The notes: generated from the sequence alone by a model not told the origin. A stretch of DNA of 35,322 nt from an uncultured Bacilli bacterium (GCA_947625365.1 CANQNZ010000001.1:1-35322); one strand, 5' to 3'. Shown: positions 1-35,322, counted from the first letter of the stretch. Made by a program: numbers and translations.

Positions 1-1284
1 TATAATGTCGTATTGAATAAAAGTAAAAGCTCTAATCTAGATGATAATCATGTCAAAGTAACAACAGGGGCAGTACCTAAATTACTTTCTAACACAGAAA
101 CTACACCAACTAATACAAGTAGCGGACAAGTACCAAGTGGATATACAGATGGAAATTCAAATATAATAAGTAAAAGTTTTGTAGGACCAAATGAAACAAA
201 GAAAGTAAAGGTAAAAACATGGATGGATAACGCAACAACAACTGCAGAAGGACAAAATAAAACATTTAATTATAAAATCTCGATTGAGACAATAGCTACA
301 AGTCAAACCCCAGAGCTAGAAAGTGTAAATATTTTAGGAAAAAATTATCCAGTAATAGCCGCCACACCAGATTTTACAAAAGGCTTTCCAAATTCATCCA
401 CAACTGATGATGATAAAAAGAACCTAAGCGGACTGTACCAATCATACGATGATGATGGCGATACATATTATTTTAGAGGAGCAGTTGAAGATAATTATGT
501 CGAATTTGCTGGAAAGACTTGGAGGATATTGCGAATAAATGGAGATGGAACAATAAGATTAATACTGAATGAAAATTTAACCGAAACAAAAGCATTTAAT
601 ACAACATATCAAGGATACCAGTATGTTGGCTATACACGAGATAATAGCTCATCTTGTACAAATGCAAACCCATGTAAAAGTACATATAGTTTAAGTAATA
701 ACTCATTTACTATGACACCAGACGGAACACCAAGTGATATAAAAAATTATTTGGAAAATTGGTATCAGGAGAGCTTGGCTCGAACAGAGGTAAATGGAAA
801 AAAAGCTGATGAATATATAACAACTACGACTTTTTGTAATGATACATCATATGGCTCAGGAACTGAGGATACAGGAACACTTTATTATGGAGCATATAAA
901 AGAATAGCAACAAATAAGAAACCAAGCTTGGAATGCCCAGACCCATATAAGAAGGATAATAGTGAATTAAGAACTTATGGAGGAGTATATAAATTAAAAA
1001 TAGGACTTATAAATGGAGACGAATTAAATATGGGAGGGTACTCATGGAGCTCTCCATATGCAACAGCAGAAAACTACTTGAGACATACATCATGGTATTG
1101 GACTCTGTCGCCTCATAATGCTAATACATCTAACGCCTTTGTACTTTTTGCTAGTAGTGTCGGTCGCGTCGACTACAGCTACGTCAATCTTAATGTTGGC
1201 GTCGCCCCAGTTATCAATCTGTCAACTGGTACACTGTCCACTAGCGGAGATGGAACATCTGGTTCGCCATTTAAAATAAATTAG
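1..1284 (+). CDS. Secreted/surface protein, probably 5'-truncated by the window edge; C-terminal region resembles a DUF6273-type domain
   Basis: The frame is open from base 1, with no stop before the TTG at 13, so the CDS probably begins upstream of the window. The protein is Thr/Ser/Asn-rich. Motifs KTWRILRINGDGTIRLI, SWYWTLSP and VGVAPVINL recall the WRVL...WWLRSP...GVRPAL pattern of DUF6273-like domains (from memory, not searched). TAG stop at 1282-1284. Confidence 0.5.
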   Translation, partial: YNVVLNKSKSSNLDDNHVKVTTGAVPKLLSNTETTPTNTSSGQVPSGYTDGNSNIISKSFVGPNETKKVKVKTWMDNATTTAEGQNKTFNYKISIETIATSQTPELESVNILGKNYPVIAATPDFTKGFPNSSTTDDDKKNLSGLYQSYDDDGDTYYFRGAVEDNYVEFAGKTWRILRINGDGTIRLILNENLTETKAFNTTYQGYQYVGYTRDNSSSCTNANPCKSTYSLSNNSFTMTPDGTPSDIKNYLENWYQESLARTEVNGKKADEYITTTTFCNDTSYGSGTEDTGTLYYGAYKRIATNKKPSLECPDPYKKDNSELRTYGGVYKLKIGLINGDELNMGGYSWSSPYATAENYLRHTSWYWTLSPHNANTSNAFVLFASSVGRVDYSYVNLNVGVAPVINLSTGTLSTSGDGTSGSPFKIN

Positions 1285-4945: not shown

Positions 4946-5368
4946 TTATTTTCGAACTAAATAAGCTTTTCCGGAATTTATTTGGGTAATTAAAGATGAA
5001 ATTAATCCTCTAAGTTCTTCTTTGTTATTAGTTTGATTAATTATTGGATAGCCAGAATATAGCAAAGTATTTAACTCTTCATCTGTTGCTTGCATAGCAG
5101 AATAGATAATAGTTGGTATGTGAACTTCTTTTGCAATTAAACTTTCTACTAATCTTAAACCAATTTTATCATTATAAATATTAGGGTTTGATAAAGATAA
5201 AGAAACATCTAAATCTAAACATATAAAATCATATGTATCATTATCTATGCTTTTTTCAGCATCAACAACATTTTTAACTGTAGTTATATCATGCACTTCA
5301 TTAATATATAAAGTTGATATTATTTCACCAATCTTATAATAACTATCAGAAACGACTAAAGCTTTCAT
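4946..5368 (-). CDS. Stand-alone CheY-like receiver-fold protein (degenerate)
   Basis: 140 aa. The pattern fits a receiver fold: beta1 MKALVVSD, beta3 with a candidate acceptor Asp (DFICLDLDV), and beta4 PTIIYSA. The conserved Lys-Pro of beta5 is not evident and there is no output domain. Confidence 0.35.
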   Translation of the reverse strand: MKALVVSDSYYKIGEIISTLYINEVHDITTVKNVVDAEKSIDNDTYDFICLDLDVSLSLSNPNIYNDKIGLRLVESLIAKEVHIPTIIYSAMQATDEELNTLLYSGYPIINQTNNKEELRGLISSLITQINSGKAYLVRK

Positions 5369-5479
5369 AATATAATAGCTCCTTTCAGCTCCAATATCAT
5401 ACCTTAAAATTTCTAAAAATACAACATAAAATCGTTAGACAAATAAATGTTTGTGTTATATAATTAAGATGGTGTTAAA

Positions 5480-7468
5480 ATGGAGATAGAAAATTTAAAA
5501 GGAGTAGGTCCTAAAACTTTAGATGCTTTACATAAATTAGAAATCTATAATATTAATGATTTATTATCATATTATCCATTTCGTTATCAAGTTTTAAAAC
5601 CAGAAGTTTTAGATAATAGCGATAATGTAAAGACTATTGTAGGTAAAGTAGAAAGTGCACCTAGAGTTATATTTATTAAAAGAAATTTAAATCGTTTAGC
5701 TTTTCGATTTATAACTGAAGGAAAGATAATAAATGTATCTATTTTTAATCGTGGCTTTTTAAAAGATAAAATTCAAATAGGCTCAGATTTAACTTTGATA
5801 GGTAAATATAATAGTAAAACTAATAACTTTGCAGCTAGTGATATTCGTTTATTTAAATTAGAAGAAACACTGATAGAACCTAAATATCATTTAATTAAAG
5901 AAATGAAATCAAATTTATTTTCTAAATTAATGGGGCAAGCTTTAAATAGTAATGAACCAGTAGTGGATTATATTCCTTTATATTTAAATAAAACTTATAA
6001 ATTTTTATCTAAATGGGAGGCATTAAAAGAAATTCATCATCCTACTAATCTTACCTTGTTAAAAAAAGCTAAACTAAAATTTATATATGAAGAATTATTT
6101 ATATTTATGTTTAAAATAAATTATTTAAAATATAAAAAATCTTTAGAACATGATTTTTTGAAAAGAACGAATAAAGAAAAAGAAGTATTAGATTTTACTA
6201 AGAATTTACCTTTTTCTTTAACTAAAGATCAAGAAAAGGCTACTCAGGATATTTTAAATGATTATATTGCGCCCAAAAGAATGAACCGCTTAGTTTTAGG
6301 TGATGTAGGAAGTGGTAAAACAATTGTAGCTTTTATTGCTATTTATGCTAATTATTTAGATAATTATCAAAGTGTTCTTATGGCGCCAACGGAGATTTTA
6401 GCAAAACAACATTATGAAAATATAATTAAAATAATGGCAAATTATGATATTAAAGTAAAACTTTTAATTGGTAGCATGAAAAAGAAGGAAAAACAGCAAA
6501 TTTTAGAGGAAGTAAAAGAGCAGAAAATTGATGTTTTAATTGGAACCCATGCGGTTTTGAATGAAAATTTGGTTTTTGCTAATTTAGGATTAGTAATAAC
6601 GGATGAACAACATCGTTTTGGAGTTAATCAAAGAAGTAGCTTGCAAAATAAAGGACAAAAAGTTGATGTTATTTATTTAAGTGCAACGCCTATTCCTCGT
6701 ACGTATGCTTTAACTTTATATGGGGATATGGATACTTCTTTAATTAAAAGTAAACCTAAAGGACGCCGGCAAGTTATAACTGATATAAAAAAAGAAAGCG
6801 AGCTTAAAGAAGTATTACAAGCAATTTTAACGCAGATAAAATTAGGACATCAGATTTATGTTGTTGCTCCTTCTATTTTAGATAATGAAGATAATGAACT
6901 GGAAAACGTAAATTCTTTAAAAGAAAAATTTAATCAAGCCTTTAAAGGATTAATTAAAATAGGGGTTTTACATGGGAAGCAAAAACCGGCGGAAAAAGAA
7001 AAGATTATGCAAGATTTTGCAGAAAACAAATATAATATTTTAATCTCCACTACAGTTATTGAAGTAGGTATTGATGTCGCTAATGCGACAATGATGGTAG
7101 TCTTTAATGCGGAGCGTTTTGGCCTTGCTACTTTGCACCAGTTAAGAGGGAGAGTAGGACGAAGCAATTTAGATAGTTATTGCTATTTAATAAGTAATTA
7201 TGAAAAAGAAAGATTGCAAGTATTAAAAGAAAGTAATGATGGTTTTTATATTAGTCAAAAAGATTTTGAATTGCGAGGAGAAGGAGATTTATTTGGTTCT
7301 AAACAAAGTGGAGATATGAGTTTTAAAATTGCTAATTTACAAAGGGATTATAAGATTTTATTGCAAGTAAAAAAGGACTCTTTAGAATATTTACAGGAAT
7401 TATTAAAAGGAAATACGCATAGTTCTTATTACGACCAAATAATTAAGAAAATAGATTTTATTGATTAA
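5480..7468 (+). CDS. recG: ATP-dependent DNA helicase RecG
   Basis: 662 aa. Walker A GDVGSGKT, DEQH box (ITDEQHRFG), helicase motif VI QLRGRVGRS, and an N-terminal wedge-domain region. Confidence 0.93.
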   Translation: MEIENLKGVGPKTLDALHKLEIYNINDLLSYYPFRYQVLKPEVLDNSDNVKTIVGKVESAPRVIFIKRNLNRLAFRFITEGKIINVSIFNRGFLKDKIQIGSDLTLIGKYNSKTNNFAASDIRLFKLEETLIEPKYHLIKEMKSNLFSKLMGQALNSNEPVVDYIPLYLNKTYKFLSKWEALKEIHHPTNLTLLKKAKLKFIYEELFIFMFKINYLKYKKSLEHDFLKRTNKEKEVLDFTKNLPFSLTKDQEKATQDILNDYIAPKRMNRLVLGDVGSGKTIVAFIAIYANYLDNYQSVLMAPTEILAKQHYENIIKIMANYDIKVKLLIGSMKKKEKQQILEEVKEQKIDVLIGTHAVLNENLVFANLGLVITDEQHRFGVNQRSSLQNKGQKVDVIYLSATPIPRTYALTLYGDMDTSLIKSKPKGRRQVITDIKKESELKEVLQAILTQIKLGHQIYVVAPSILDNEDNELENVNSLKEKFNQAFKGLIKIGVLHGKQKPAEKEKIMQDFAENKYNILISTTVIEVGIDVANATMMVVFNAERFGLATLHQLRGRVGRSNLDSYCYLISNYEKERLQVLKESNDGFYISQKDFELRGEGDLFGSKQSGDMSFKIANLQRDYKILLQVKKDSLEYLQELLKGNTHSSYYDQIIKKIDFID

Positions 7469-7500
7469 TTGTATTATAATTTAATTAGGGGATGATACTA

Positions 7501-8166
7501 ATGGATAGACGATTAATAAAAAAAGAAGCTTGGGATTTAACTAAAGAGAAGTTTTTAGATTTATGGAAAGTGTTAATTATTAACATGGCTATATCATGTG
7601 CATATATGGTGTTATTTAATTATGGACTTAAGGGAGTAAATGAAAACTTAACATCAGCGCTTGCTATGGTATATAATTTAATAACAATTCCTTTCTCATT
7701 TGGTTTAAATAAATATTTCTTAGCGTGTGCTCGCCGAGAAAAAGCAAGTATTAAAGATTTACTGTATTATTATCGCCATAATATTATTGAGACTATTGTT
7801 TTATCAATGATTTTAAGTTTAGGTTATAATATTGGGTTAATTTTATATATTTTTCCTGCTGTTTTAATGTATTTATTTGTATCAATGTCTGAAAATTGTT
7901 TGATTGATGGAACTAGTAATCCTATTGATGCTTTATCGCAAAGCTGTAAATTAATGAAAGGGTATAAATGGGATTATTTAAATTTTTTAATTAGTTATTT
8001 ATTATGGTTCTTTTTAGGAATTGTAACAATGGGGCTTGCTTTTATTTGGGTATTACCTTATTTTACAATGTCTCAAAAGATTTATTATTTGAAATTAAAA
8101 GAAATAAAGAGTCCAAAAAAGGAAAAGAAGAAAAGTAAGGCTAAATTTAAAAAGACTGAAAAATAA
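7501..8166 (+). CDS. Multi-pass membrane protein, DUF975-like
   Basis: Several hydrophobic helices and a Lys-rich C-terminal tail. The overall layout resembles DUF975 integral membrane proteins (from memory). The ATG at 7501 lies 9 nt after the AGGGGA Shine-Dalgarno sequence, whereas the ATG at 7492 abuts it. Confidence 0.45.
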   Translation: MDRRLIKKEAWDLTKEKFLDLWKVLIINMAISCAYMVLFNYGLKGVNENLTSALAMVYNLITIPFSFGLNKYFLACARREKASIKDLLYYYRHNIIETIVLSMILSLGYNIGLILYIFPAVLMYLFVSMSENCLIDGTSNPIDALSQSCKLMKGYKWDYLNFLISYLLWFFLGIVTMGLAFIWVLPYFTMSQKIYYLKLKEIKSPKKEKKKSKAKFKKTEK

Positions 8167-8176
8167 TAGGAAGTAT

Positions 8177-8641
8177 ATGAATGTAGTAAAGTTAGAAAAA
8201 GAAAATAATATTAATTTTCTAGATATATTTTATAAAACTCATTGGCAAGCTGAAGTAAGAAATTTTTTAAATGAATTTTGGCAGCTTAATCCTGGTGCTC
8301 TTAATATAGGGGTTTATTTTCATGATACCAGTATTTCTATTGAAGCAGAAAGTGGCGGGATTATAGAAGATATTTTGAAAATTCGCTTGCATGGTTTTTC
8401 TCGTAAGGGGCGAATTTTAGCCTTAAAATTTATTTATGGCAGTCTTTTATATTTACAGATAAATTATCAAAATAAAGTTATCTATTTTTGCAATGTAGAA
8501 GTGCGAAATAGACTTTGGGGTAAGTTTAAATATTCTAATGAAGAATTCGAAAAAGTAATGGAGCGCTATATTAATCTTTTAAGTTATTGGCCCAAAGATG
8601 AAAATATTGTTAATAAAAAGTTGTTAAAATTATATAAATAG
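8177..8641 (+). CDS. Hypothetical protein (154 aa)
   Basis: Intact ORF in a genome rich in stop codons. AGGAAG Shine-Dalgarno sequence upstream. No recognisable motif. Confidence 0.55.
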   Translation: MNVVKLEKENNINFLDIFYKTHWQAEVRNFLNEFWQLNPGALNIGVYFHDTSISIEAESGGIIEDILKIRLHGFSRKGRILALKFIYGSLLYLQINYQNKVIYFCNVEVRNRLWGKFKYSNEEFEKVMERYINLLSYWPKDENIVNKKLLKLYK

Positions 8642-8669
8642 TGGTATTATAAATGGCGGAGGGTTTTAT

Positions 8670-11096
8670 ATGGGAAAGAATAAAAGCAGAGAAAAAGTAA
8701 GTGTTAAACAAATTTTAGGGACAGCGTTACAATATTTTAATGACGTAGACCAGATTGATTTAAATATGTTTGTGGCTGATATAAAGCAAACTAAACAATT
8801 TTTAATAGTTGATGAGTTAGAAGAAGATAAGCAGTTATCTAAAGTTATTTCTCATAAAGATGATAAAATAGTCTTTTCTAAAAACAAGAAAAGGAAAGAA
8901 ATTTTAGAAAAAAATATTCCTAGTAGTTTATATAGTTTTTTTAAGAAAAGATATTTCTCTCGTCCTTGGAATGGTTATAATCACGAGGAACGTAAAAACT
9001 ATAATATGACAAAGGAAAAAGAGAAAATCAAAGGATGCAGTAATATTTTGGTAATATCGAATAATAAAGATGATTATCAAGTTTTAAAAGAATATGGTTT
9101 TGAACGTATTGATTATGTACCAACTTTGATAGATTTAGAAAGATTAGTTCGTAGTGAGGAAAATCTTCTTAATCAATATAATGTGATAGTATTTGGTAAA
9201 GAATATTTTAATAAAGATTTTACGAAACATTTTCAATCTTTTAAAAGCTACTCAATTTTAAAGGCAATTTATGAGGATGCTAAAAGTGATTTTATAAATA
9301 TTGGTATATTAGAAAATGCCGAGGATAAGCTAAATCTTTATATGCAAAATAATATATTAAATTTTTCTTGGACTACAGGATTAGTTTCGGAAAAAGATGC
9401 GGTAAGTAAAATTGCGGATAATTTAGTAGCAAATAAAGTATTAGCTAAAAAAAGAGAATATTCACCAATAAAAAAAGAGACCAAACAAACGAAAATTCCG
9501 ATTAAAAATCGTGAGATTAAAGTTTTAGTTTTAGGTGATAATTTAGATTATAAAAATGATTTTCAAAAGCAAACTGGACTTGATGTAACATGTCGTTTTG
9601 ATACTAATATTAATTTATTATTAGCGAGTGGGCAGTATGATATTATTATCGCTAGTCAAAAACGTTTAGATAAGGTTAGAGAGCTTCAAGATGTTATTAT
9701 GGAGCAATGTCTTTTAGCCAAAAGACCTTTAAGTTTGTTTTTAGCTTATGATGCGCAGAATATTATGATGCCAGAGTTTGATGAAAACATTTTAGGCCAA
9801 CGCGTAAATTTTAAATATCTATGGTTTGGACAAATAGGCAAAAATTTAAATCCTAAAACTACTGATTATTATGAGCATAGTTATAAATTTTTAAGAAAAC
9901 AGTGGCAAAGAATTGATTATTCAAAGGCTTTTCAGCAACAGTTAGCTGAGGTAGCTAGCGTGGAAAACTTATTAAAAGAAACAGTTCGTATTTATAACGC
10001 CGGTCTTTTGCGAGCTAACCTTGGCATGCTACAAGAAAAATTATTTGCTCCACCAAGAATTGCTGCACACGAGTTTTTAAAAATAGAAAGAACTTCTAAA
10101 ATAGAAAAAGAAATTACTTTAGCGCAGGTAGATAAATTGAAAGAAAAGATAGCTTTAAGAGCTTTAACGGGCTTAAAATCTTATGATTATCAAAATGAGC
10201 GATATCCATATGAGGGTGTTATAATATGTAAGCATGTAAGTGAGCAAGAAGAAAATTTAGCAGTTTTAAAGTTAGATGGACCAGATGGTTATGAGCCTTG
10301 TGTTATAATCGAAAAGGGCGGCCAAACTTATTTCATTGGTACGCCAGAGCAAAGAGGGTATTTGACCGAAGTGCTAAAACAAACTGATAAAAAACAAACG
10401 ATAAATAAACCAGCAAAAGTAATTAAAACAACACCTATCATAAAAGAGCCTTTAGTAGAAAAAGAAATGCCTTTACAAGAAGCAATAGATAACATAAAAG
10501 ATTATGAAAGAATGTTACATTTTAACAAGGTAGGTTTATTAGCTCGTTTGCAAGGAAAAAGAAAAGATAAATTAGCCGAAGAAAAACTATATTTAACTAG
10601 AAAAAATCAATTATATCAGGTTGCAACTTTTGACTTTGATAAAATATATGATTTTATGGCCGAAGTTCTTAGCCGAATGACTAATGAAGACTTTATTATT
10701 TTAAATTATAATATGGTAACTTGGAATTATCCTTTTATAAATCCAAGCTTTCCGATGCCAACTATTCAATCTGTAAAAATTTTAACTAGTGAGCATGAAG
10801 CAAAGGAAATTAATAAAGTAATAGAAGATTTTAATTATTCTATAAATTCTTTAGAAGCAATAAAAATGTATCCTCATATTGGTTTAATTTATAGCGATAA
10901 ATTATTAATCTTTGATTTTAATAAAGTAAATATTTTAACAGATTTAACTAGCAGTTATCCAAAGCTAAAACCTTATTTAGAGCAGTTAATTAATGTTCGT
11001 TTAGAAAATCCAGAAATAAGCGAAGATGAAGCTTATAATAAAGTGTTAGAAACAAAGTTATCACAAGAAGTAAAAAGAGTGAGACAAATGGATTAG
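8670..11096 (+). CDS. Large hypothetical protein (808 aa), no recognised catalytic motif
   Basis: GGAGGG Shine-Dalgarno sequence 7 nt upstream of the ATG. 2.4-kb uninterrupted ORF. No signal peptide, transmembrane segment, P-loop or metal-binding motif was seen by eye. Confidence 0.6.
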   Translation: MGKNKSREKVSVKQILGTALQYFNDVDQIDLNMFVADIKQTKQFLIVDELEEDKQLSKVISHKDDKIVFSKNKKRKEILEKNIPSSLYSFFKKRYFSRPWNGYNHEERKNYNMTKEKEKIKGCSNILVISNNKDDYQVLKEYGFERIDYVPTLIDLERLVRSEENLLNQYNVIVFGKEYFNKDFTKHFQSFKSYSILKAIYEDAKSDFINIGILENAEDKLNLYMQNNILNFSWTTGLVSEKDAVSKIADNLVANKVLAKKREYSPIKKETKQTKIPIKNREIKVLVLGDNLDYKNDFQKQTGLDVTCRFDTNINLLLASGQYDIIIASQKRLDKVRELQDVIMEQCLLAKRPLSLFLAYDAQNIMMPEFDENILGQRVNFKYLWFGQIGKNLNPKTTDYYEHSYKFLRKQWQRIDYSKAFQQQLAEVASVENLLKETVRIYNAGLLRANLGMLQEKLFAPPRIAAHEFLKIERTSKIEKEITLAQVDKLKEKIALRALTGLKSYDYQNERYPYEGVIICKHVSEQEENLAVLKLDGPDGYEPCVIIEKGGQTYFIGTPEQRGYLTEVLKQTDKKQTINKPAKVIKTTPIIKEPLVEKEMPLQEAIDNIKDYERMLHFNKVGLLARLQGKRKDKLAEEKLYLTRKNQLYQVATFDFDKIYDFMAEVLSRMTNEDFIILNYNMVTWNYPFINPSFPMPTIQSVKILTSEHEAKEINKVIEDFNYSINSLEAIKMYPHIGLIYSDKLLIFDFNKVNILTDLTSSYPKLKPYLEQLINVRLENPEISEDEAYNKVLETKLSQEVKRVRQMD

Positions 11097-23306: not shown

Positions 23307-23366
23307 TTATTGACTTTTGATGTGCTTAATGATTAAATAAATAGTAATTTGAAAGGATTAGTTAAA

Positions 23367-24170
23367 ATGTTAATATATAATGAAGGTCAAACTTTAGATA
23401 CTAAAGAAATGAAATTATTAGGTGGAAATGGCGAAGGCATATTTTATGCCGGGGAAAGTGTAATAAAAGTTTACGATGATGCTCCTAAAAAGAGGTTATT
23501 AGATGAAAATGATGTTAATTATTTAGCTAAAATAAAAACATTAAGAATATTACTTCCTAAAAATCCTATTTATGTTATGGAAAATGGCCAGAAAATATTT
23601 AAAGGGTACGCTCGTCATCAATATATTCAAAATTGTATACCTTTAAGTGCAATGTGGGAAACATTACCAGAAAAATTAGAAGAAGAAGGAAAATATATAG
23701 AAGAGGATGTGGAAATATTAACGGAAAATAATGTGAAATTACATGATTTAGCGGTTAGAGATAATCTTTTATATAATGGTAATCTATACTTTTGTGACCC
23801 AAGCACTTTTACAATAAATAGTGATACTAAAGTGACAAACAATAATAAGGAAGAATTAAAAGAGGCTTTACATTATCATTTGATTTTATTAGGAACAAAT
23901 CCCGAATATTTAGAAGAAGAGTTAGCAAAAATGACCGGGATAGATTATCAACTGTCAGAAGATTTTTATAACTTTTTATTAAATGTTTATGGTAGTGTTT
24001 ATGATATGATAAGTGACTATAGTTATTTTGAATATTTAAATGATATATTAGAGTATTATGGTTCAATTGAAAATTATAAATTAGAACTTTTAGAAAAAGC
24101 GATAGAGGATAGTCGATATTCTAGATATAGCTTTGAAGTTGAAACTTTAGAAAGAATATTACATCGTTAA
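23367..24170 (+). CDS. Protein-kinase-like fold protein (hypothetical); its 3' end is the duplicated attachment-like sequence
   Basis: GNGEGIFYAGESVIKVY resembles a Gly-loop plus VAIK-type Lys. KLHDLAVRDNLLYNGNLYFCDPS resembles an HxD....N catalytic loop followed by a DFG-equivalent Asp. The ATG at 23367 lies 10 nt after GAAAGGA. Confidence 0.4.
   Translation: MLIYNEGQTLDTKEMKLLGGNGEGIFYAGESVIKVYDDAPKKRLLDENDVNYLAKIKTLRILLPKNPIYVMENGQKIFKGYARHQYIQNCIPLSAMWETLPEKLEEEGKYIEEDVEILTENNVKLHDLAVRDNLLYNGNLYFCDPSTFTINSDTKVTNNNKEELKEALHYHLILLGTNPEYLEEELAKMTGIDYQLSEDFYNFLLNVYGSVYDMISDYSYFEYLNDILEYYGSIENYKLELLEKAIEDSRYSRYSFEVETLERILHR
24113..24170 (+). repeat. Direct repeat, left copy (attL-like), 58 bp, forming the last 19 codons plus stop of the kinase-like gene
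   Basis: tcgatattctagatatagctttgaagttgaaaCtttagaaagaatattacatcgttaa is identical to 26450-26507 except for C/T at 24145/26482. Confidence 0.9.
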
Positions 24171-24187
24171 TATTTTTTTTAATACAA

Positions 24188-24220
24188 AATGTTGATTTTT
24201 TCAACATTAATGCATATAAT
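24188..24220 (+). promoter_or_regulatory. Cassette promoter with an overlapping palindromic candidate operator
   Basis: TTGATT (24192-24197), a 17-nt spacer, then TATAAT (24215-24220). A perfect inverted repeat AATGTTGA-ttttt-TCAACATT (24188-24208) covers the -35 element. Confidence 0.6.
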
Positions 24221-24251
24221 ATAAATGACTTTATACGTTGAGGTGGTGTAT

Positions 24252-24593
24252 ATGAAAGAGTTAAATTATAAAAAAATAGGGGAACGGTTAAGAAAACTTA
24301 GAAAATATATGGGCTTAACTCAAAGACAAGTTGCTGAGATTTTGAATGTAGGTAGAGATGCAATTTTAAGAATTGAAAAAGGAGAACGCAAGATTGATTT
24401 GCAAGAATTAATGAGTTTTTCAAAATTGTATAATATAAGTATGGATGAATTAACAGCTGAAGAACATGCTATAAATAGTAGTAATGTTATTTTTGCTAGG
24501 GGATTTAATGAATTAAGTGAAAAGGATAAAAAAGAAATTATTAGTTTAATTGAGTATAAGAATATATTAAAGTCACAAAATAAGGATGACTAA
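24252..24593 (+). CDS. XRE-family helix-turn-helix transcriptional regulator
   Basis: IGERLRKLRKYMGLTQRQVAEILNVGRDAILRIEKGERKIDLQELMSFSKLYNISMDEL is a canonical HTH_3/Cro-C1 fold sequence. The ATG at 24252 follows GAGGTGG. Confidence 0.9.
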   Translation: MKELNYKKIGERLRKLRKYMGLTQRQVAEILNVGRDAILRIEKGERKIDLQELMSFSKLYNISMDELTAEEHAINSSNVIFARGFNELSEKDKKEIISLIEYKNILKSQNKDD

Positions 24594-24594
24594 T

Positions 24595-25992
24595 ATGACA
24601 CCAGAAGATTTAGCCAAAAGAGAATTAGATAAGCTAAAGAAAAGTGGCAAATTAACTTTTCCGATAGACCCCTTTAAAATCCTTCATAATGCTGGTGTAT
24701 ACGTTGTATTAAAAAGTTTTGAAAATTTAGATGGTATTATCATTAATGATGAAGATAACTGTACAATTGTAGGTATTAATTCAAACAGCGGATGGCAAAG
24801 ACAAAGATTTACTGCAGCACATGAGTATTGTCACTTTATAAAAGATTTGAATAAAGAAATTGGAATAACTGACTATATTGAGTGCTTAAAAAAATCAAAT
24901 AAAAAAATTGAAAAATATGCAAACGATTTTGCTGGCTATTTACTTATGCCTACTGACGAATTAAGGACCGTATGTGAACAATACAAAAATAAAAATGGTT
25001 TTATTGATTTTGAAAGCATTACAATTATAGCTGAATATTTTGGTGTTAGCTTTAATTCTTGTTTGAATAGAATTGCTTATGGCTTAAATTTAATAAATGG
25101 TGATATTTCTTATGCATCATTAAGACAAAGAATGAAGGAGTATGGAGTATCAGCAAAAAGACAAGAATTAATAGAAAATAAAATTGATAGCACGTTGCTA
25201 TCTAATGTTGTAAGTTCCATGAGTTTTGCTATGATGGATATTAATAAGTATACTGGTCAAAAGTTTTTGCAAAATTATATTTATAATGATAATAAACTTG
25301 AAGGGGTAGTAATTGATAGGAAACAACTTAATTACATACTTGCCGATTTAAATTTTAATGGCACTGATAGTCAATTTTTTGAAAATGATAGAGAAGAAAT
25401 AGTAATGACACTTGGTAATTTAGAATTACAACGATATGTAATTAACACCAAAGATAACATTTTATTTAGAAACTGTGGACAATTACATTCATTATTATTT
25501 AAATATGTTCCATATCCTGATGATAATGGTAAGTATAGGGATGAAACGGCATTATTAAAAAGAGGTACTATACAACCAGTTCCATATTATGAGATAAATG
25601 ATAGAATTAATGCTCTTGATGAAGAATTACAATTTTTTATGGAAAATATAGAACAATATGAAATAGGAGAGTATATAGAGCAAGTGGCATATTTCACATA
25701 TAAGTTTATTGTTATTCATCCATTTAGAGATGGCAATGGACGTATATCAAGAGCTATAATGAATTGGCTTTTAAGCAAGAAGAAAATCCCTCCAATTTAT
25801 ATTGAACAAAAATGTAGAAAAGAATATTATGATGCATTATCAAAAATAGATTTAGAAGAGAATCCGGTTCCATTTATTATGTTTATTGAAAAAAGAATAA
25901 TTCATACAATGATGGAATTGCATAAATATTTATTTGTCGATGAGATAGATGAAGAAGAAATAAATGAGGAGGCTGAAGTTAATGAAAATTAA
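24595..25992 (+). CDS. ImmA/IrrE-family zinc metallopeptidase fused to a C-terminal Fic (AMPylase) domain
   Basis: HEYCH (nt 24820-24834) together with EKYANDFAGYLLMP matches the COG2856/Peptidase_M78 pattern. HPFRDGNGRISR (nt 25717-25752) is a complete Fic motif HxFx(D/E)GNGRxxR. The start at 24595 lies 2 nt after the XRE stop and 8 nt after AAGGA; an alternative ATG at 24586 exists. Confidence 0.85.
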   Translation: MTPEDLAKRELDKLKKSGKLTFPIDPFKILHNAGVYVVLKSFENLDGIIINDEDNCTIVGINSNSGWQRQRFTAAHEYCHFIKDLNKEIGITDYIECLKKSNKKIEKYANDFAGYLLMPTDELRTVCEQYKNKNGFIDFESITIIAEYFGVSFNSCLNRIAYGLNLINGDISYASLRQRMKEYGVSAKRQELIENKIDSTLLSNVVSSMSFAMMDINKYTGQKFLQNYIYNDNKLEGVVIDRKQLNYILADLNFNGTDSQFFENDREEIVMTLGNLELQRYVINTKDNILFRNCGQLHSLLFKYVPYPDDNGKYRDETALLKRGTIQPVPYYEINDRINALDEELQFFMENIEQYEIGEYIEQVAYFTYKFIVIHPFRDGNGRISRAIMNWLLSKKKIPPIYIEQKCRKEYYDALSKIDLEENPVPFIMFIEKRIIHTMMELHKYLFVDEIDEEEINEEAEVNEN

Positions 25993-26401
25993 TAAGTGGC
26001 CTAGAAATAATTATACAGGCCCAGGAGGCGGACTATATACAGGCCCAGGAGGTGGATTATATACGGGTCCAGGAGGTGGTGCATCTACAGGCCCAGGAGG
26101 TGGATTATATACAGGTCCAGGAGGTGGATTATATACAGGCCCGGGAGGCGGACTATATACAGGCCCAGGAGGTGGATTATAAACAGGTCCGGGAGGTGGA
26201 TTATATACGGGTCCAGGAGGTGGACTATATACAGGTCCAGGAGGTGGATTATACACCGGTCCAAGTGGCGGAGCATATAATGGCCCGGGAGAATCATATA
26301 TGAGTAATATTCCGCCATGGCCAGTATTTGTAAAAGAATTAGAAAAAAGAGGTTATAAAAAAGAGGCAGATTTAATTAAAAAATATCATAAATGTGATTA
26401 G
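25982..26401 (+). pseudogene. Gly/Pro/Tyr-rich repeat protein (YTGPGGGL x11) with a 40-aa non-repeat C-terminal tail; reading frame interrupted by one in-frame TAA at 26180-26182
   Basis: GAGGAGG Shine-Dalgarno sequence 8 nt upstream. The ATG at 25982 overlaps the Fic gene stop by 11 nt. The same frame continues after the TAA through four more repeat units to ...[30 protein letters not shown] and a TAG at 26399-26401. As written, it yields a 66-aa product. Confidence 0.6.
26012..26275 (+). repeat. Tandem 24-nt coding repeat, 11 units (plus a degenerate 12th)
   Basis: Unit consensus tatacaggYccaggaggtggaYta. Units 2 and 7 are identical, as are units 5 and 10. Local GC is about 50%, against about 30% in the flanks. 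Confidence 0.95.
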
Positions 26402-26449
26402 AAAATGTTGTTATCATTAATCTTTTTATGTTGTAATAATCAAGAGTAA

Positions 26450-26507
26450 TCGATATTCTAGATATAGCTTTGAAGTTGAAATTTTAGAAAGAATATTACA
26501 TCGTTAA
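26450..26507 (+). repeat. Direct repeat, right copy (attR-like); orphan 3' fragment of the kinase-like gene
   Basis: 57/58 match to 24113-24170. In the cognate frame, the nearest upstream in-frame stop is at 26418-26420 and there is no start codon. Confidence 0.9.
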
Positions 26508-26513
26508 AAAAGA

Positions 26514-26542
26514 TTGAATATTTAGCTTTTATCGCATATAAT
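26514..26542 (+). promoter_or_regulatory. Sigma-A type promoter of the leuS leader
   Basis: TTGAAT (26514-26519), a 17-nt spacer, then TATAAT (26537-26542). Confidence 0.65.
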
Positions 26543-26548
26543 ATAGAC

Positions 26549-26741
26549 AAGCGATGAAAAAAGAGTAGTAGAATAAGAATTATTTTTAGAAAGCTAGTGG
26601 TTGATGAAAACTAGTAATAAGATTATTTGAACTTGCTTTTGGATGTGATGGGTCATCTCCCTTATGGATTTTAAGCTAGTAATACTAGGAACTTTAGGTG
26701 GTACCACGTTTAAATACGTCCTTTAGAGGATGTGTTTTTTT
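26549..26741 (+). promoter_or_regulatory. T-box riboswitch leader (tRNA-Leu responsive)
   Basis: Stem I elements GCGATGA...AGAGTAGTA, an AGAAAG bulge, and distal stem CTAGT-ggttgatgaaa-ACTAG. Candidate specifier GAA-CUU-G, with CUU (Leu) at 26632-26634. Conserved T-box sequence AGGTGGTACCACG at 26696-26708. Terminator ACGTCCT-ttag-AGGATGT plus a U-run at 26716-26741. Confidence 0.8.
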
Positions 26742-26760
26742 ATTAGAAAGAGGTTTTATA

Positions 26761-27153
26761 ATGTTATATAATTTAATATTTTTTCTAATTTTATTTGTTA
26801 TAGCTTGGATTATTTTTTCGCTCATTAATAGAGCTAAAATAAATACTAATAAGAAATACCAGATGGCGGAGGTAAAATATTTAATTAGTCGTTTTACTAT
26901 TGATAAAAAGAAAATAGATTATAAGAAGCTTATTAGATTAATTAATATAGCTAATGCTTTTATTATTTCTTTTGTTTGTACAATAATATCCGTACTACCA
27001 TTAAAGTTCTTATGGCAAATGTTAATTGGTTTTGTTTTATTATTTGTTTTAATGTTTTTATGTTATGAATTATTAGGAATATATGCAGTAAAGAAAGGTT
27101 GGAAGAAAAATGGAAAGAGATTATCAAAAAATAGAGAAAAAGTGGCAAAATAG
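26761..27153 (+). CDS. Small three-TM membrane protein (130 aa) lying between the T-box and leuS
   Basis: AGAAAGAGG Shine-Dalgarno sequence 5 nt before the ATG at 26761. Three hydrophobic helices and a Lys-rich tail. Its 3' end overlaps the leuS start by 44 nt in another frame. The track start at 26698 would lie inside the T-box terminator. Confidence 0.55.
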   Translation: MLYNLIFFLILFVIAWIIFSLINRAKINTNKKYQMAEVKYLISRFTIDKKKIDYKKLIRLINIANAFIISFVCTIISVLPLKFLWQMLIGFVLLFVLMFLCYELLGIYAVKKGWKKNGKRLSKNREKVAK

Positions 27154-35246: not shown

Positions 35247-35322
35247 TGCCCCATAGCCAAGTGGTAAGGCATCAGGCTCTGAACCTGACATTCCGTTAGT
35301 TCGAATCTAACTGGGGCAGCCA
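35247..35322 (+). tRNA. tRNA-Gln (anticodon CUG), CCA-encoded, ending at the window edge
   Basis: Acceptor stem UGCCCCA/UGGGGCA plus GCCA. D arm GCC-AAGUGGUAA-GGC. Anticodon stem UCAGG/CCUGA with loop CU-CUG-AA. T arm GUUAG-UUCGAAU-CUAAC. It closely resembles Firmicutes tRNA-Gln. An extended -10 element TGTTATAAT lies upstream. Confidence 0.85.

Follow-up and report, generated by a model that had tools for sequence, protein, structure and literature searches.

A predicted XRE repressor and metallopeptidase-Fic fusion on a mobile islet of uncultured gut Bacilli

Introduction

What could be the function of a gene that encodes, in one polypeptide, a metallopeptidase of the repressor-cleaving type and an AMPylating Fic domain? 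This question is raised by a locus in DNA of an uncultured Bacilli bacterium (GCA_947625365.1 CANQNZ010000001.1:1-35322), of which the whole stretch of 35,322 nucleotides (nt) is called the window here. Its positions 24188-26401 hold a cassette of three co-directional reading frames on the plus strand behind a single promoter-like site: gene 1 for an XRE-type helix-turn-helix (HTH) repressor, gene 2 for a fusion of an M78 (ImmA/IrrE-type) peptidase domain with a Fic domain, and gene 3 (G3) for a Gly/Pro-rich repeat protein. XRE/M78 switches such as CapH/CapP, ImmR/ImmA and RosmerTA, and Fic toxins such as SoFic, Doc and FicT, are known separately; here the protease and the presumed effector are one polypeptide. 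The cassette poses the questions of how an M78 peptidase is triggered without a GAF domain and whether cleavage of the repressor also activates the attached enzyme, and it is a tractable test case for them, being the compact module (about 2.2 kb) of a sizeable family that moves between uncultured Bacilli of the human gut.

An initial annotation of the window had read the cassette as a repressor-cleaving switch joined to an AMPylating effector, with gene 3 as a possible dedicated substrate, decoy or antitoxin of the Fic enzyme. Our analysis finds the first part a fair reading, the top PADLOC matches of genes 1 and 2 being capH and capP, and argues against the second. It is proposed, with chances that we judge about even, that the cassette is a self-repressed, protease-triggered Fic toxin module for abortive infection or element addiction.

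Operon organization and a conserved operator

The consensus-like promoter attributed to the cassette was borne out by a sigma-70-like site ahead of gene 1 (coordinates of all features are given in Table 1), which is conserved in three related loci, L001, L002 and L004 (L numbers designate the loci compared). Its -35 box is overlapped by a perfect palindrome, AATGTTGA-N5-TCAACATT, a pattern that occurs once in the window against 0.05 occurrences expected by chance; no further operator copy was found elsewhere in the window. The palindrome core, ATGTTGA-N5-TCAACAT, is present exactly once per locus in 35 related loci comprising both cassette alleles described below, always at the same position upstream of the XRE gene, and is presumed to be the XRE operator. 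Genes 1 and 2 are separated by 1 nt and not by the 2 nt first reported, while the 11-nt overlap between gene 2 and gene 3, whose ATG lies at 25982, was described correctly. The G+C content of the module is about 27%, like that of its flanks, with only the Gly/Pro repeat richer, and base composition is therefore uninformative about a foreign origin. Because no terminator is predicted after gene 3, transcription of the cassette may run on into the T-box leader of the leuS gene that lies downstream.

Gene 1 and the peptidase half of gene 2

Profile searches support each of the three domains named in the initial annotation, and the ImmA/IrrE and Fic motifs lie in one 465-residue polypeptide where it had located them. 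Gene 1 matches Pfam HTH_3 (7.6e-13) and PADLOC capH (7.2e-12, residues 6-108 on profile positions 4-97 of 103). Gene 2 matches Pfam Peptidase_M78 over residues 58-163 (2.3e-14), Pfam Fic over residues 299-396 (2e-14) and PADLOC capP with 9.1e-26, the last over profile positions 7-151 of 242 only. PHROG repressor and metalloprotease families likewise match genes 1 and 2.

Conservation was assessed across 47 homologues of 50-91% identity, in which H76, E77, H80, E106 and C97 of the peptidase half are all invariant. The spacing of the zinc site, H76/E77/H80/E106, agrees with that of H97, H101 and E128 in CapP. C97 is found in the same loop as the cysteine switch of CapP, from which it is offset by a few residues in the alignment, and may play a comparable role. 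An AlphaFold2 model of gene 2 (pLDDT 87, pTM 0.84) was searched with Foldseek, which aligned the N-terminal half to CapP (7t5t) over 184 columns against 278 target residues; a helical linker connects the M78 and Fic domains. No GAF domain was found in gene 2, in which the capP match ends at position 151 of 242 and the residues from about 217 onwards are assigned to Fic by Pfam and by a PDB-sequence profile search. The sensor half of CapP is thus missing, with Fic in its place. Without a GAF domain there is no groove for single-stranded DNA, and therefore the trigger of CapP is not transferable to this protein.

The Fic half of gene 2

The catalytic motif of the Fic domain, HPFRDGNGRISR, fits HxFx(D/E)GNGRxxR, and residues H375-R386 are invariant, including the H, P, F, G, N, G and R of the motif. 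In the PDB-sequence profile search the best relative was FICD (5e-20), with YDNKLEG of gene 2 aligned to the inhibitory TVAIEG of the human protein. The initial annotation had offered DNKLEG as the closest match to the auto-inhibitory motif (S/T)xxxE(G/N) while leaving the regulatory state unclear, and this choice is confirmed by the alignment. The motif is a variant in which Asp replaces Ser/Thr at the first position; D232, N233 and E236 are invariant and G237 is nearly so. Foldseek matched the C-terminal half of the model to FICD (7.6e-10), BT_2513 and CdFic (target TM-score 0.75), and in PADLOC the Fic part matched the candidate defence family PDC-S04 (8e-20) and SoFic (1.4e-15). Because DNKLEG aligns with TVAIEG and its Glu is invariant, the Fic domain, whose AMPylation motif is canonical, is assigned to class II, the class that is auto-inhibited in cis.

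The XRE and M78-Fic genes form a matched pair

Of the M78-Fic family no fewer than 889 clusters at 90% identity were counted, by scoring the 8000 candidates that shared most words, and its full-length members share both Pfam domains. When the 50%-identity representatives were searched exhaustively, 59 proteins reached E <= 1e-30, and about 30 of 150 among the matches listed span both domains, at 25-52% identity. One database source labels a family member 'ImmA / fido'; the architecture is visible in databases yet uncharacterised.

Wherever a locus extends far enough upstream, an XRE gene lies directly before the fusion, and this holds for fusion proteins of as little as 43% identity. How closely the two genes belong together can be seen by comparing the elements of L008 (5063-8929) and L043 (5085-8875), which are 85-90% identical in the zinc-ribbon region at their left and 80-98% identical in the stretch of gene 3 and integrase at their right. 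Between these the block from XRE to Fic drops to 53-76% nucleotide identity, the change being abrupt both ahead of the promoter and where gene 3 begins. The proteins of the diverged allele tell the same: its XRE and Fic proteins are 58% and 52% identical to those of the window, against 94% for the gene 3 C terminus (to a query from L001) and 83-93% for the integrase (to that of L008). This points to the swapping of a cassette between two alleles with a common operator. The element is mosaic, and since the diverged block sits inside a conserved backbone, the XRE and M78-Fic genes are exchanged as one unit, a matched pair from which gene 3 is separate.

A distant full-length fusion (28% identity, 95% coverage) is encoded on the phage-like plasmid NZ_CP154914.1 of Bacillus pumilus (L107, 3615-5350), where it follows an open reading frame (ORF) of 111 amino acids (aa) between a phage lysis cassette and an integrase, and where the plasmid has separate ImmA and HTH genes of its own. 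No relative was found in IMG/VR contigs scanned with the fusion alignment, and GenBank phages gave only partial matches to the separate domains, none of them covering 80% of the fusion protein.

Insertion of the cassette in the window and its mobility

In the window the module is bracketed by two copies of a 61-nt direct repeat, identical at 59 of 61 positions, which had escaped the initial annotation. The left copy is the 3' end of a resident ORF of 273 aa. This ORF has no match in Pfam, NCBIfam, PHROG or PADLOC and only four relatives in a search of 5.8 billion proteins, and by these comparisons it is an orphan gene. A related empty site is provided by L112, in which the leuS promoter and T-box leader come immediately after a homologous ORF, without the module. 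The window cassette is an insertion with a 61-nt target duplication and a copy of the islet described below that carries no integrase.

Duplications of the local target also flank other integrase-less copies, and their lengths differ: 137 nt in L006 (5458-5593 and 7779-7915), 28 nt in L014 (5549-5576 and 7475-7502) and about 14 nt in L017 (about 5577-5590 and 7833-7846), the two copies differing by a few mismatches. The right junction of L006 falls on a 10-nt microhomology, ATTAGAAAAT. A single attachment (att) site for all copies was rejected, the flanks being duplications of each copy's own target and of differing length, and a duplication of fixed length, as made by a transposase, does not fit lengths of 61, 137, 28 and about 14 nt. 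When L008 (4500-9300) and L004 (5000-8200) were scanned with Rfam, nothing was found, neither a tRNA or small-RNA target of integration nor a T-box. One ancient insertion upstream of leuS, common to the window and L004, was set aside as an idea, the T-box being absent from L004 and its upstream gene being a different one.

The 2.2-kb module shares about 88% DNA identity with the copies in L001 and L002, whereas the flanking core genes pyruvate:ferredoxin oxidoreductase and recG of those two genomes are only 67-69% identical to the window's, and the cassette copies occupy different chromosomal sites. The close relatives all come from uncultured gut Bacilli, 'Mollicutes' or Erysipelotrichaceae bins, with one closed chromosome of 1.54 Mb. 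Taken as a whole, these comparisons indicate that the cassette is horizontally mobile among gut Bacilli with reduced genomes. An aminoacyl-tRNA synthetase gene was seen within a few kb downstream of several copies (leuS at 27110 in the window and at 7810 in L004, pheS at 9850 in L001, thrS at 11302 in L002), which may simply reflect the dense housekeeping content of small genomes.

The complete islet and its neighbours

The initial annotation had allowed that the module might turn out to be the immunity region of an ordinary prophage or integrative and conjugative element (ICE). An integrative element does surround it in relatives, but it is an islet of about 3.9 kb (the shared segment of L008 spans about 5063-8929) in which no excisionase, replication, conjugation or phage gene was found, and therefore no ordinary immunity region of that kind. 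The order of the full islet is a DUF7695 gene, XRE, M78-Fic, gene 3 and then a convergent tyrosine integrase gene. The DUF7695 gene (1.4e-27; L008 5358-5552) encodes a 64-aa zinc-ribbon protein of the form CxxC...CxC, has its own promoter-like site just upstream of the XRE promoter, and is present in 19 loci and absent from the window. The integrase is a protein of 369 aa (L008 7815-8924; PHROG integrase, 4.9e-56), truncated or reduced to a remnant in most copies.

Because abortive-infection (Abi) or restriction genes adjoin it in at least four genomes, the element can be said to sit often in defence islands. The neighbours are AbiEi/AbiEii and GmrSD in L016, HsdR in L015, Dam methylase, DpnII and GmrSD in L010, and HsdM in L005.

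Gene 3 in the window and its family

Gene 3 contains a tandem array of 24-nt repeats, the copies of which differ 13 times at third codon positions and 4 and 2 times at the others; because the differences concentrate on third positions, the YTGPGGGL frame is taken to be coding. The initial annotation treated the gene as open to 26401 and counted 11 evenly spaced Tyr-Thr dipeptides, overlooking an in-frame TAA, so the 11 repeat positions are in fact 9 Tyr-Thr, 1 Ser-Thr and 1 stop-Thr. Since all 34 other full-length loci among L001-L051 read through, free of stops, the gene 3 of the window is a pseudogene or contains a sequencing error. Within the clade the number of repeats ranges from 1 to 12 and the residue after the repeat Tyr may be T, K, A, E, D, V or S, with an aromatic residue kept in nearly every unit. 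Gene 3 follows gene 2 in about 39 of the 43 loci with downstream DNA, the window counted; it is absent beside an intact fusion gene in L004, L014, L044 and L048, and also at the Bacillus pumilus fusion locus.

Searches with gene 3 returned at least 782 proteins of a common plan, in which WPR(N/D)xY is followed by (Y/S)TGPxGG(L/M/A) repeats and these by PYxSNIPPWPxFVxELExRG with a short helical tail. Their sources are Bacillota, Actinomycetota, Armatimonadota and Acinetobacter, and some of the proteins carry signal peptides. No curated model in Pfam, NCBIfam, PHROGs or PADLOC matches gene 3, phages gave no match, and a full-text literature search for the repeat sequence found no paper. The family, which has neither name nor annotation, is widely distributed among plasmids of Enterococcus, Clostridium, Bacillus and Acinetobacter: on plasmids of Weissella, Clostridium perfringens, Enterococcus faecium, Aerococcus, Bacillus and Acinetobacter the homologues are called only 'hypothetical protein' (plasmid loci from cultured hosts are L106 343-609, L103 3782-4120, L104 3833-4123, L115 2704-3138 and L114 2668-3126). 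On the 2.4-kb plasmid pJY33 of Weissella cibaria (L106) gene 3 and Rep are the sole genes; on pJIR4150 of Clostridium perfringens it lies between YdcP genes and FtsK/MobT, and on Enterococcus faecium plasmids between insertion sequence (IS) elements. Elsewhere, in defence contexts that likewise have no Fic gene, a TIR protein directly follows it, or it comes after a 392-aa unknown protein near DRT2, or its neighbours are a DUF4062 protein on one side and a type ISP restriction enzyme on the other. In two further contexts it stands downstream of an XRE/M78 switch on the same strand, after a RosmerTA pair in L108 (RmrT, 9e-26, then RmrA, 3.7e-119) and, on p3DB053 of Acinetobacter baumannii, after XRE, ImmA and a 48-aa ORF, in this order. 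In the copy from Acinetobacter junii the repeat is shifted and reads STGPYGG(L/M).

The AlphaFold2 model of G3 is of low confidence (pLDDT 53), with the repeats disordered and an N-terminal strand pairing with one that immediately precedes two confident C-terminal helices, an arrangement suggestive of a small clasp around a loop of varying length. Judged from its sequence context, gene 3 is not a dedicated partner of Fic; it is a separate mobile-element gene riding on the integrase backbone, with a looser link to XRE/M78 switches possible in what is a small sample.

Comparison with known systems

By the sequence comparisons made here, an M78-Fic fusion with a separate XRE gene and no GAF domain falls outside the described CapH/CapP, RosmerTA and SoFic architectures against which it was tested. 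CapP cleaves CapH (bioRxiv 10.1101/2022.04.27.489752; 10.64898/2026.05.16.725639) and consists of peptidase, HTH and GAF domains, with single-stranded DNA bound between peptidase and GAF (10.64898/2026.05.16.725639). Like CapH/CapP, which is related to IrrE/DdrO and ImmA/ImmR, the cassette has, beside an M78 protein, an XRE repressor that counts by its capH match among those with a C-terminal oligomerisation region, an HExxH motif with a Glu about 30 residues downstream, a palindromic operator at the promoter and a conserved Cys in the loop of the CapP cysteine switch. Unlike it, the cassette lacks the GAF domain and hence the interdomain groove for single-stranded DNA, its peptidase is fused to the effector, where CapH/CapP regulates a separate divergent immune operon, and its genes are co-directional and presumably autoregulated from one promoter.

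RosmerTA and SoFic protect against phages (bioRxiv 10.1101/2022.05.11.491447). RosmerTA and the three-component COG2856-Xre-toxin systems that Makarova and colleagues predicted in 2009 (PMC2701414) resemble the cassette in combining HTH, M78 and toxin-like domains, in being mobile and in occurring in defence islands. In RosmerTA, however, RmrA is an HTH-M78 fusion and the toxin RmrT is separate, whereas in the cassette the HTH protein is separate and M78 is fused to Fic; the cassette matches RmrA with only 1e-8 to 1e-10, against 3.7e-119 for the true RmrA of L108, and has no PADLOC match to RmrT.

SoFic is toxic, AMPylates EF-Tu and has a small downstream antitoxin, AS1 (PMC12249575; bioRxiv 10.64898/2026.07.09.737422). 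A Fic AMPylase (by prediction, for gene 2) with an inhibitory helix in cis, defence contexts and a small gene following are common to both. The SoFic model NCBIfam NF046030, however, scores gene 2 at 30.9 bits against a cut-off of 550 and over residues 363-439 only, gene 2 has M78 instead of the other SoFic domains, and G3 resembles the 47-aa AS1 neither in size nor in composition. Among proteins of solved structure, human FICD/HYPE and the bacterial class II proteins CdFic and BT_2513 come nearest to the Fic half, in sequence profile (5e-20) as well as in fold, and the inhibitory Glu of gene 2 is aligned to E234 of FICD; gene 2 differs from these proteins in having no tetratricopeptide repeat (TPR) or membrane anchor, in the Asp at the start of its motif and in its N-terminal peptidase. 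With the ImmR/ImmA-int module of ICEBs1 and of temperate phages of Gram-positive bacteria the islet shares XRE, M78 and a tyrosine integrase on an integrative element. It is unlike these in that its integrase gene is convergent and not co-transcribed, that it has no excisionase, conjugation or phage genes, and that its peptidase carries Fic.

Proposed mechanism and alternative explanations

The proposal of a self-repressed, protease-triggered Fic toxin draws on what the sequences show, namely the domain identities, the conservation of the catalytic residues, the conserved operator, the co-inheritance of XRE and M78-Fic, the mobility of the cassette and its defence neighbours. From these, and by analogy with CapH/CapP, ImmR/ImmA, RosmerTA and Fic toxins such as SoFic, we infer the following course for repressor cleavage, its trigger, AMPylation of a target and the resulting phenotype. 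At first, the XRE protein would bind the palindrome over the -35 box and keep the operon low. A stress or infection cue would then activate the peptidase, which would cleave the XRE protein; by analogy the cue might be DNA damage or single-stranded DNA, although the GAF sensor domain is missing. Loss of the repressor would derepress the operon and possibly also release the enzyme. The inhibitory Glu would keep Fic off until the protein accumulates or changes its oligomeric state, and the freed Fic domain would finally AMPylate an essential host protein, or a phage protein, so that growth stops.

Several observations weigh against this proposal. The capP match ends at position 151 of 242, and both the GAF domain and the groove for single-stranded DNA are absent. 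Since the inhibitory Glu is invariant, and the state that it sets in FICD and SoFic favours de-AMPylation, gene 2 may encode a reversible regulator and not a toxin. Gene 2 is dispensable, several copies being broken or truncated (frameshifted in L016 and in L046, 6001-7388; 5'-truncated in L015, 6001-7359; reduced to its first 130 or so codons in L018, 6001-6396), and the cassette decays as well as spreads. The flanks of the window are housekeeping genes and not a defence island. Finally, the full form adjoins an integrase, which would suit a role in controlling the element itself.

This last point leads to the main rival explanation, that the XRE/M78 pair is the immunity or induction switch of the islet, governing its excision or transfer in the manner of ImmR/ImmA of ICEBs1 or of a cI/ImmA pair in phages, with Fic as a passenger. 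It would account for the place of the module inside a 3.9-kb element with a tyrosine integrase in relatives, and for the PHROG repressor and metalloprotease families matched by both genes, XRE/M78 pairs being the classical switches of such elements (PMC2701414). Yet the islet offers such a switch no excisionase, replication or transfer genes to control, its other genes being DUF7695 and G3, and the integrase gene is convergent and outside the operon. The pair is moreover intact in many copies, the window's included, in which the integrase gene has been cut short or lost; the catalytic motif of Fic does not vary; the Bacillus pumilus fusion is in a cargo position besides the ImmA and HTH genes of its element; and fusion relatives are missing from IMG/VR contigs, as are full-length ones from GenBank phages. 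On balance we consider a switch for the islet improbable. Still less probable, in our view, is the suggestion of the initial annotation that gene 3 is a dedicated Fic substrate, decoy or antitoxin with regular Tyr-Thr acceptor sites. The 11-nt overlap with gene 2, the presence of gene 3 after gene 2 in about 39 of 43 loci and the aromatic residue in nearly every repeat unit speak for it, as does the precedent of SoFic, a defence gene with the small antitoxin AS1 downstream (PMC12249575). But the Thr is not conserved and the number of repeats varies from 1 to 12; G3 keeps 91-94% identity in loci whose XRE and Fic are only 52-58% identical, and hence does not co-vary with Fic but is inherited with the integrase. 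It is missing from four loci with an intact fusion and from that of Bacillus pumilus, its homologues occur without a Fic gene (on pJY33 and pJIR4150, beside a TIR protein, after RosmerTA), the (S/T)xxxE(G/N) motif is not found in it, and in the window its nonsense mutation stands beside an intact Fic gene.

Gene 3 might instead be tied to the XRE/M78 switch and not to Fic, either as a regulated output or as a bait or modulator of the peptidase, in a three-part system that shares its third part with other XRE/M78 modules. In favour of this is its position downstream of XRE/M78, on the same strand, in three independent architectures (the islet, RosmerTA of L108 and p3DB053). The link is seen in only 3 of about 14 distinct contexts sampled, the others having no XRE/M78 gene, in a sample that is small and non-random, and the signal peptides of some homologues fit poorly with a cytoplasmic peptidase as partner; such a tie is rather unlikely. 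A broader model, which we regard as rather unlikely too, is that G3 defines an unrecognised, phylum-spanning family of small proteins of mobile elements and serves as a generic third component of toxin or defence modules controlled by XRE/M78, with Fic, with RosmerTA or beside TIR. In the structural model a clasp is formed by the conserved N-terminal WPRxxY strand and a C-terminal unit of SNIPPWP plus two helices, with a disordered (Y/S)TGPxGG loop, varying in length, between them. As a third component G3 might act as a bait that senses phage factors, might be an effector under regulation, or might counter defences on entry of the element into a new cell. If true, this role of G3 and the wiring of peptidase to Fic would together make a new type of three-part immune or addiction switch.

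Features of the window

Table 1. Positions of the features discussed, counted from the first nucleotide of the window (residue numbers refer to the gene 2 product)
Feature	Position	Strand	Basis or remark
Resident 273-aa ORF	23349-24170	+	Source of the duplicated 3' end
61-nt direct repeat, left copy	24110-24170	+	3' end, including stop codon, of the resident 273-aa ORF
Perfect palindrome, presumed XRE operator	24188-24208		Overlaps the -35 box
Sigma-70-like promoter, TTGATT-17-TATAAT	24192-24220	+	10/12 matches; top site of the region
Gene 1, XRE/CapH-like HTH repressor, 113 aa	24252-24593	+	Pfam HTH_3 and PADLOC capH
Gene 2, M78-Fic fusion, 465 aa	24595-25992	+	Pfam, PADLOC, conservation, AlphaFold2/Foldseek
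CapP/ImmA-like M78 domain of gene 2	residues ~1-165		HEYCH, Glu106, invariant Cys97
HEYCH, M78 metallopeptidase signature	24820-24834	+	Motif located in gene 2
Class II FICD-like Fic domain of gene 2	residues ~217-450		Inhibitory DNKLEG and HPFRDGNGRISR
Inhibitory motif DNKLEG	25288-25305	+	Aligned to FICD TVAIEG
Fic catalytic motif HPFRDGNGRISR	25717-25752, residues 375-386	+	Fits HxFx(D/E)GNGRxxR
Gene 3 (G3), YxGPGGG[LMA]-repeat protein, 139 codons	25982-26401	+	Stop-interrupted here; family comparison
24-nt tandem repeat array, 10.5 copies, YTGPGGGL	26012-26263	+	Tandem Repeats Finder (TRF) score 357
In-frame TAA (TAT-to-TAA)	26180-26182	+	Cuts G3 after 66 residues; this copy only
61-nt direct repeat, right copy (target duplication)	26447-26507	+	Resident leuS promoter and T-box leader directly after
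Resident leuS promoter, TTGAAT-17-TATAAT	26514-26542		Immediately follows the insertion
T-box leader	26546-26726		94.5 bits
Small membrane-protein ORF	within 26698-27153		Between T-box and leuS; overlaps the leuS start

At the end of the window lies a tRNA-Gln (CTG) gene (35247-35322).

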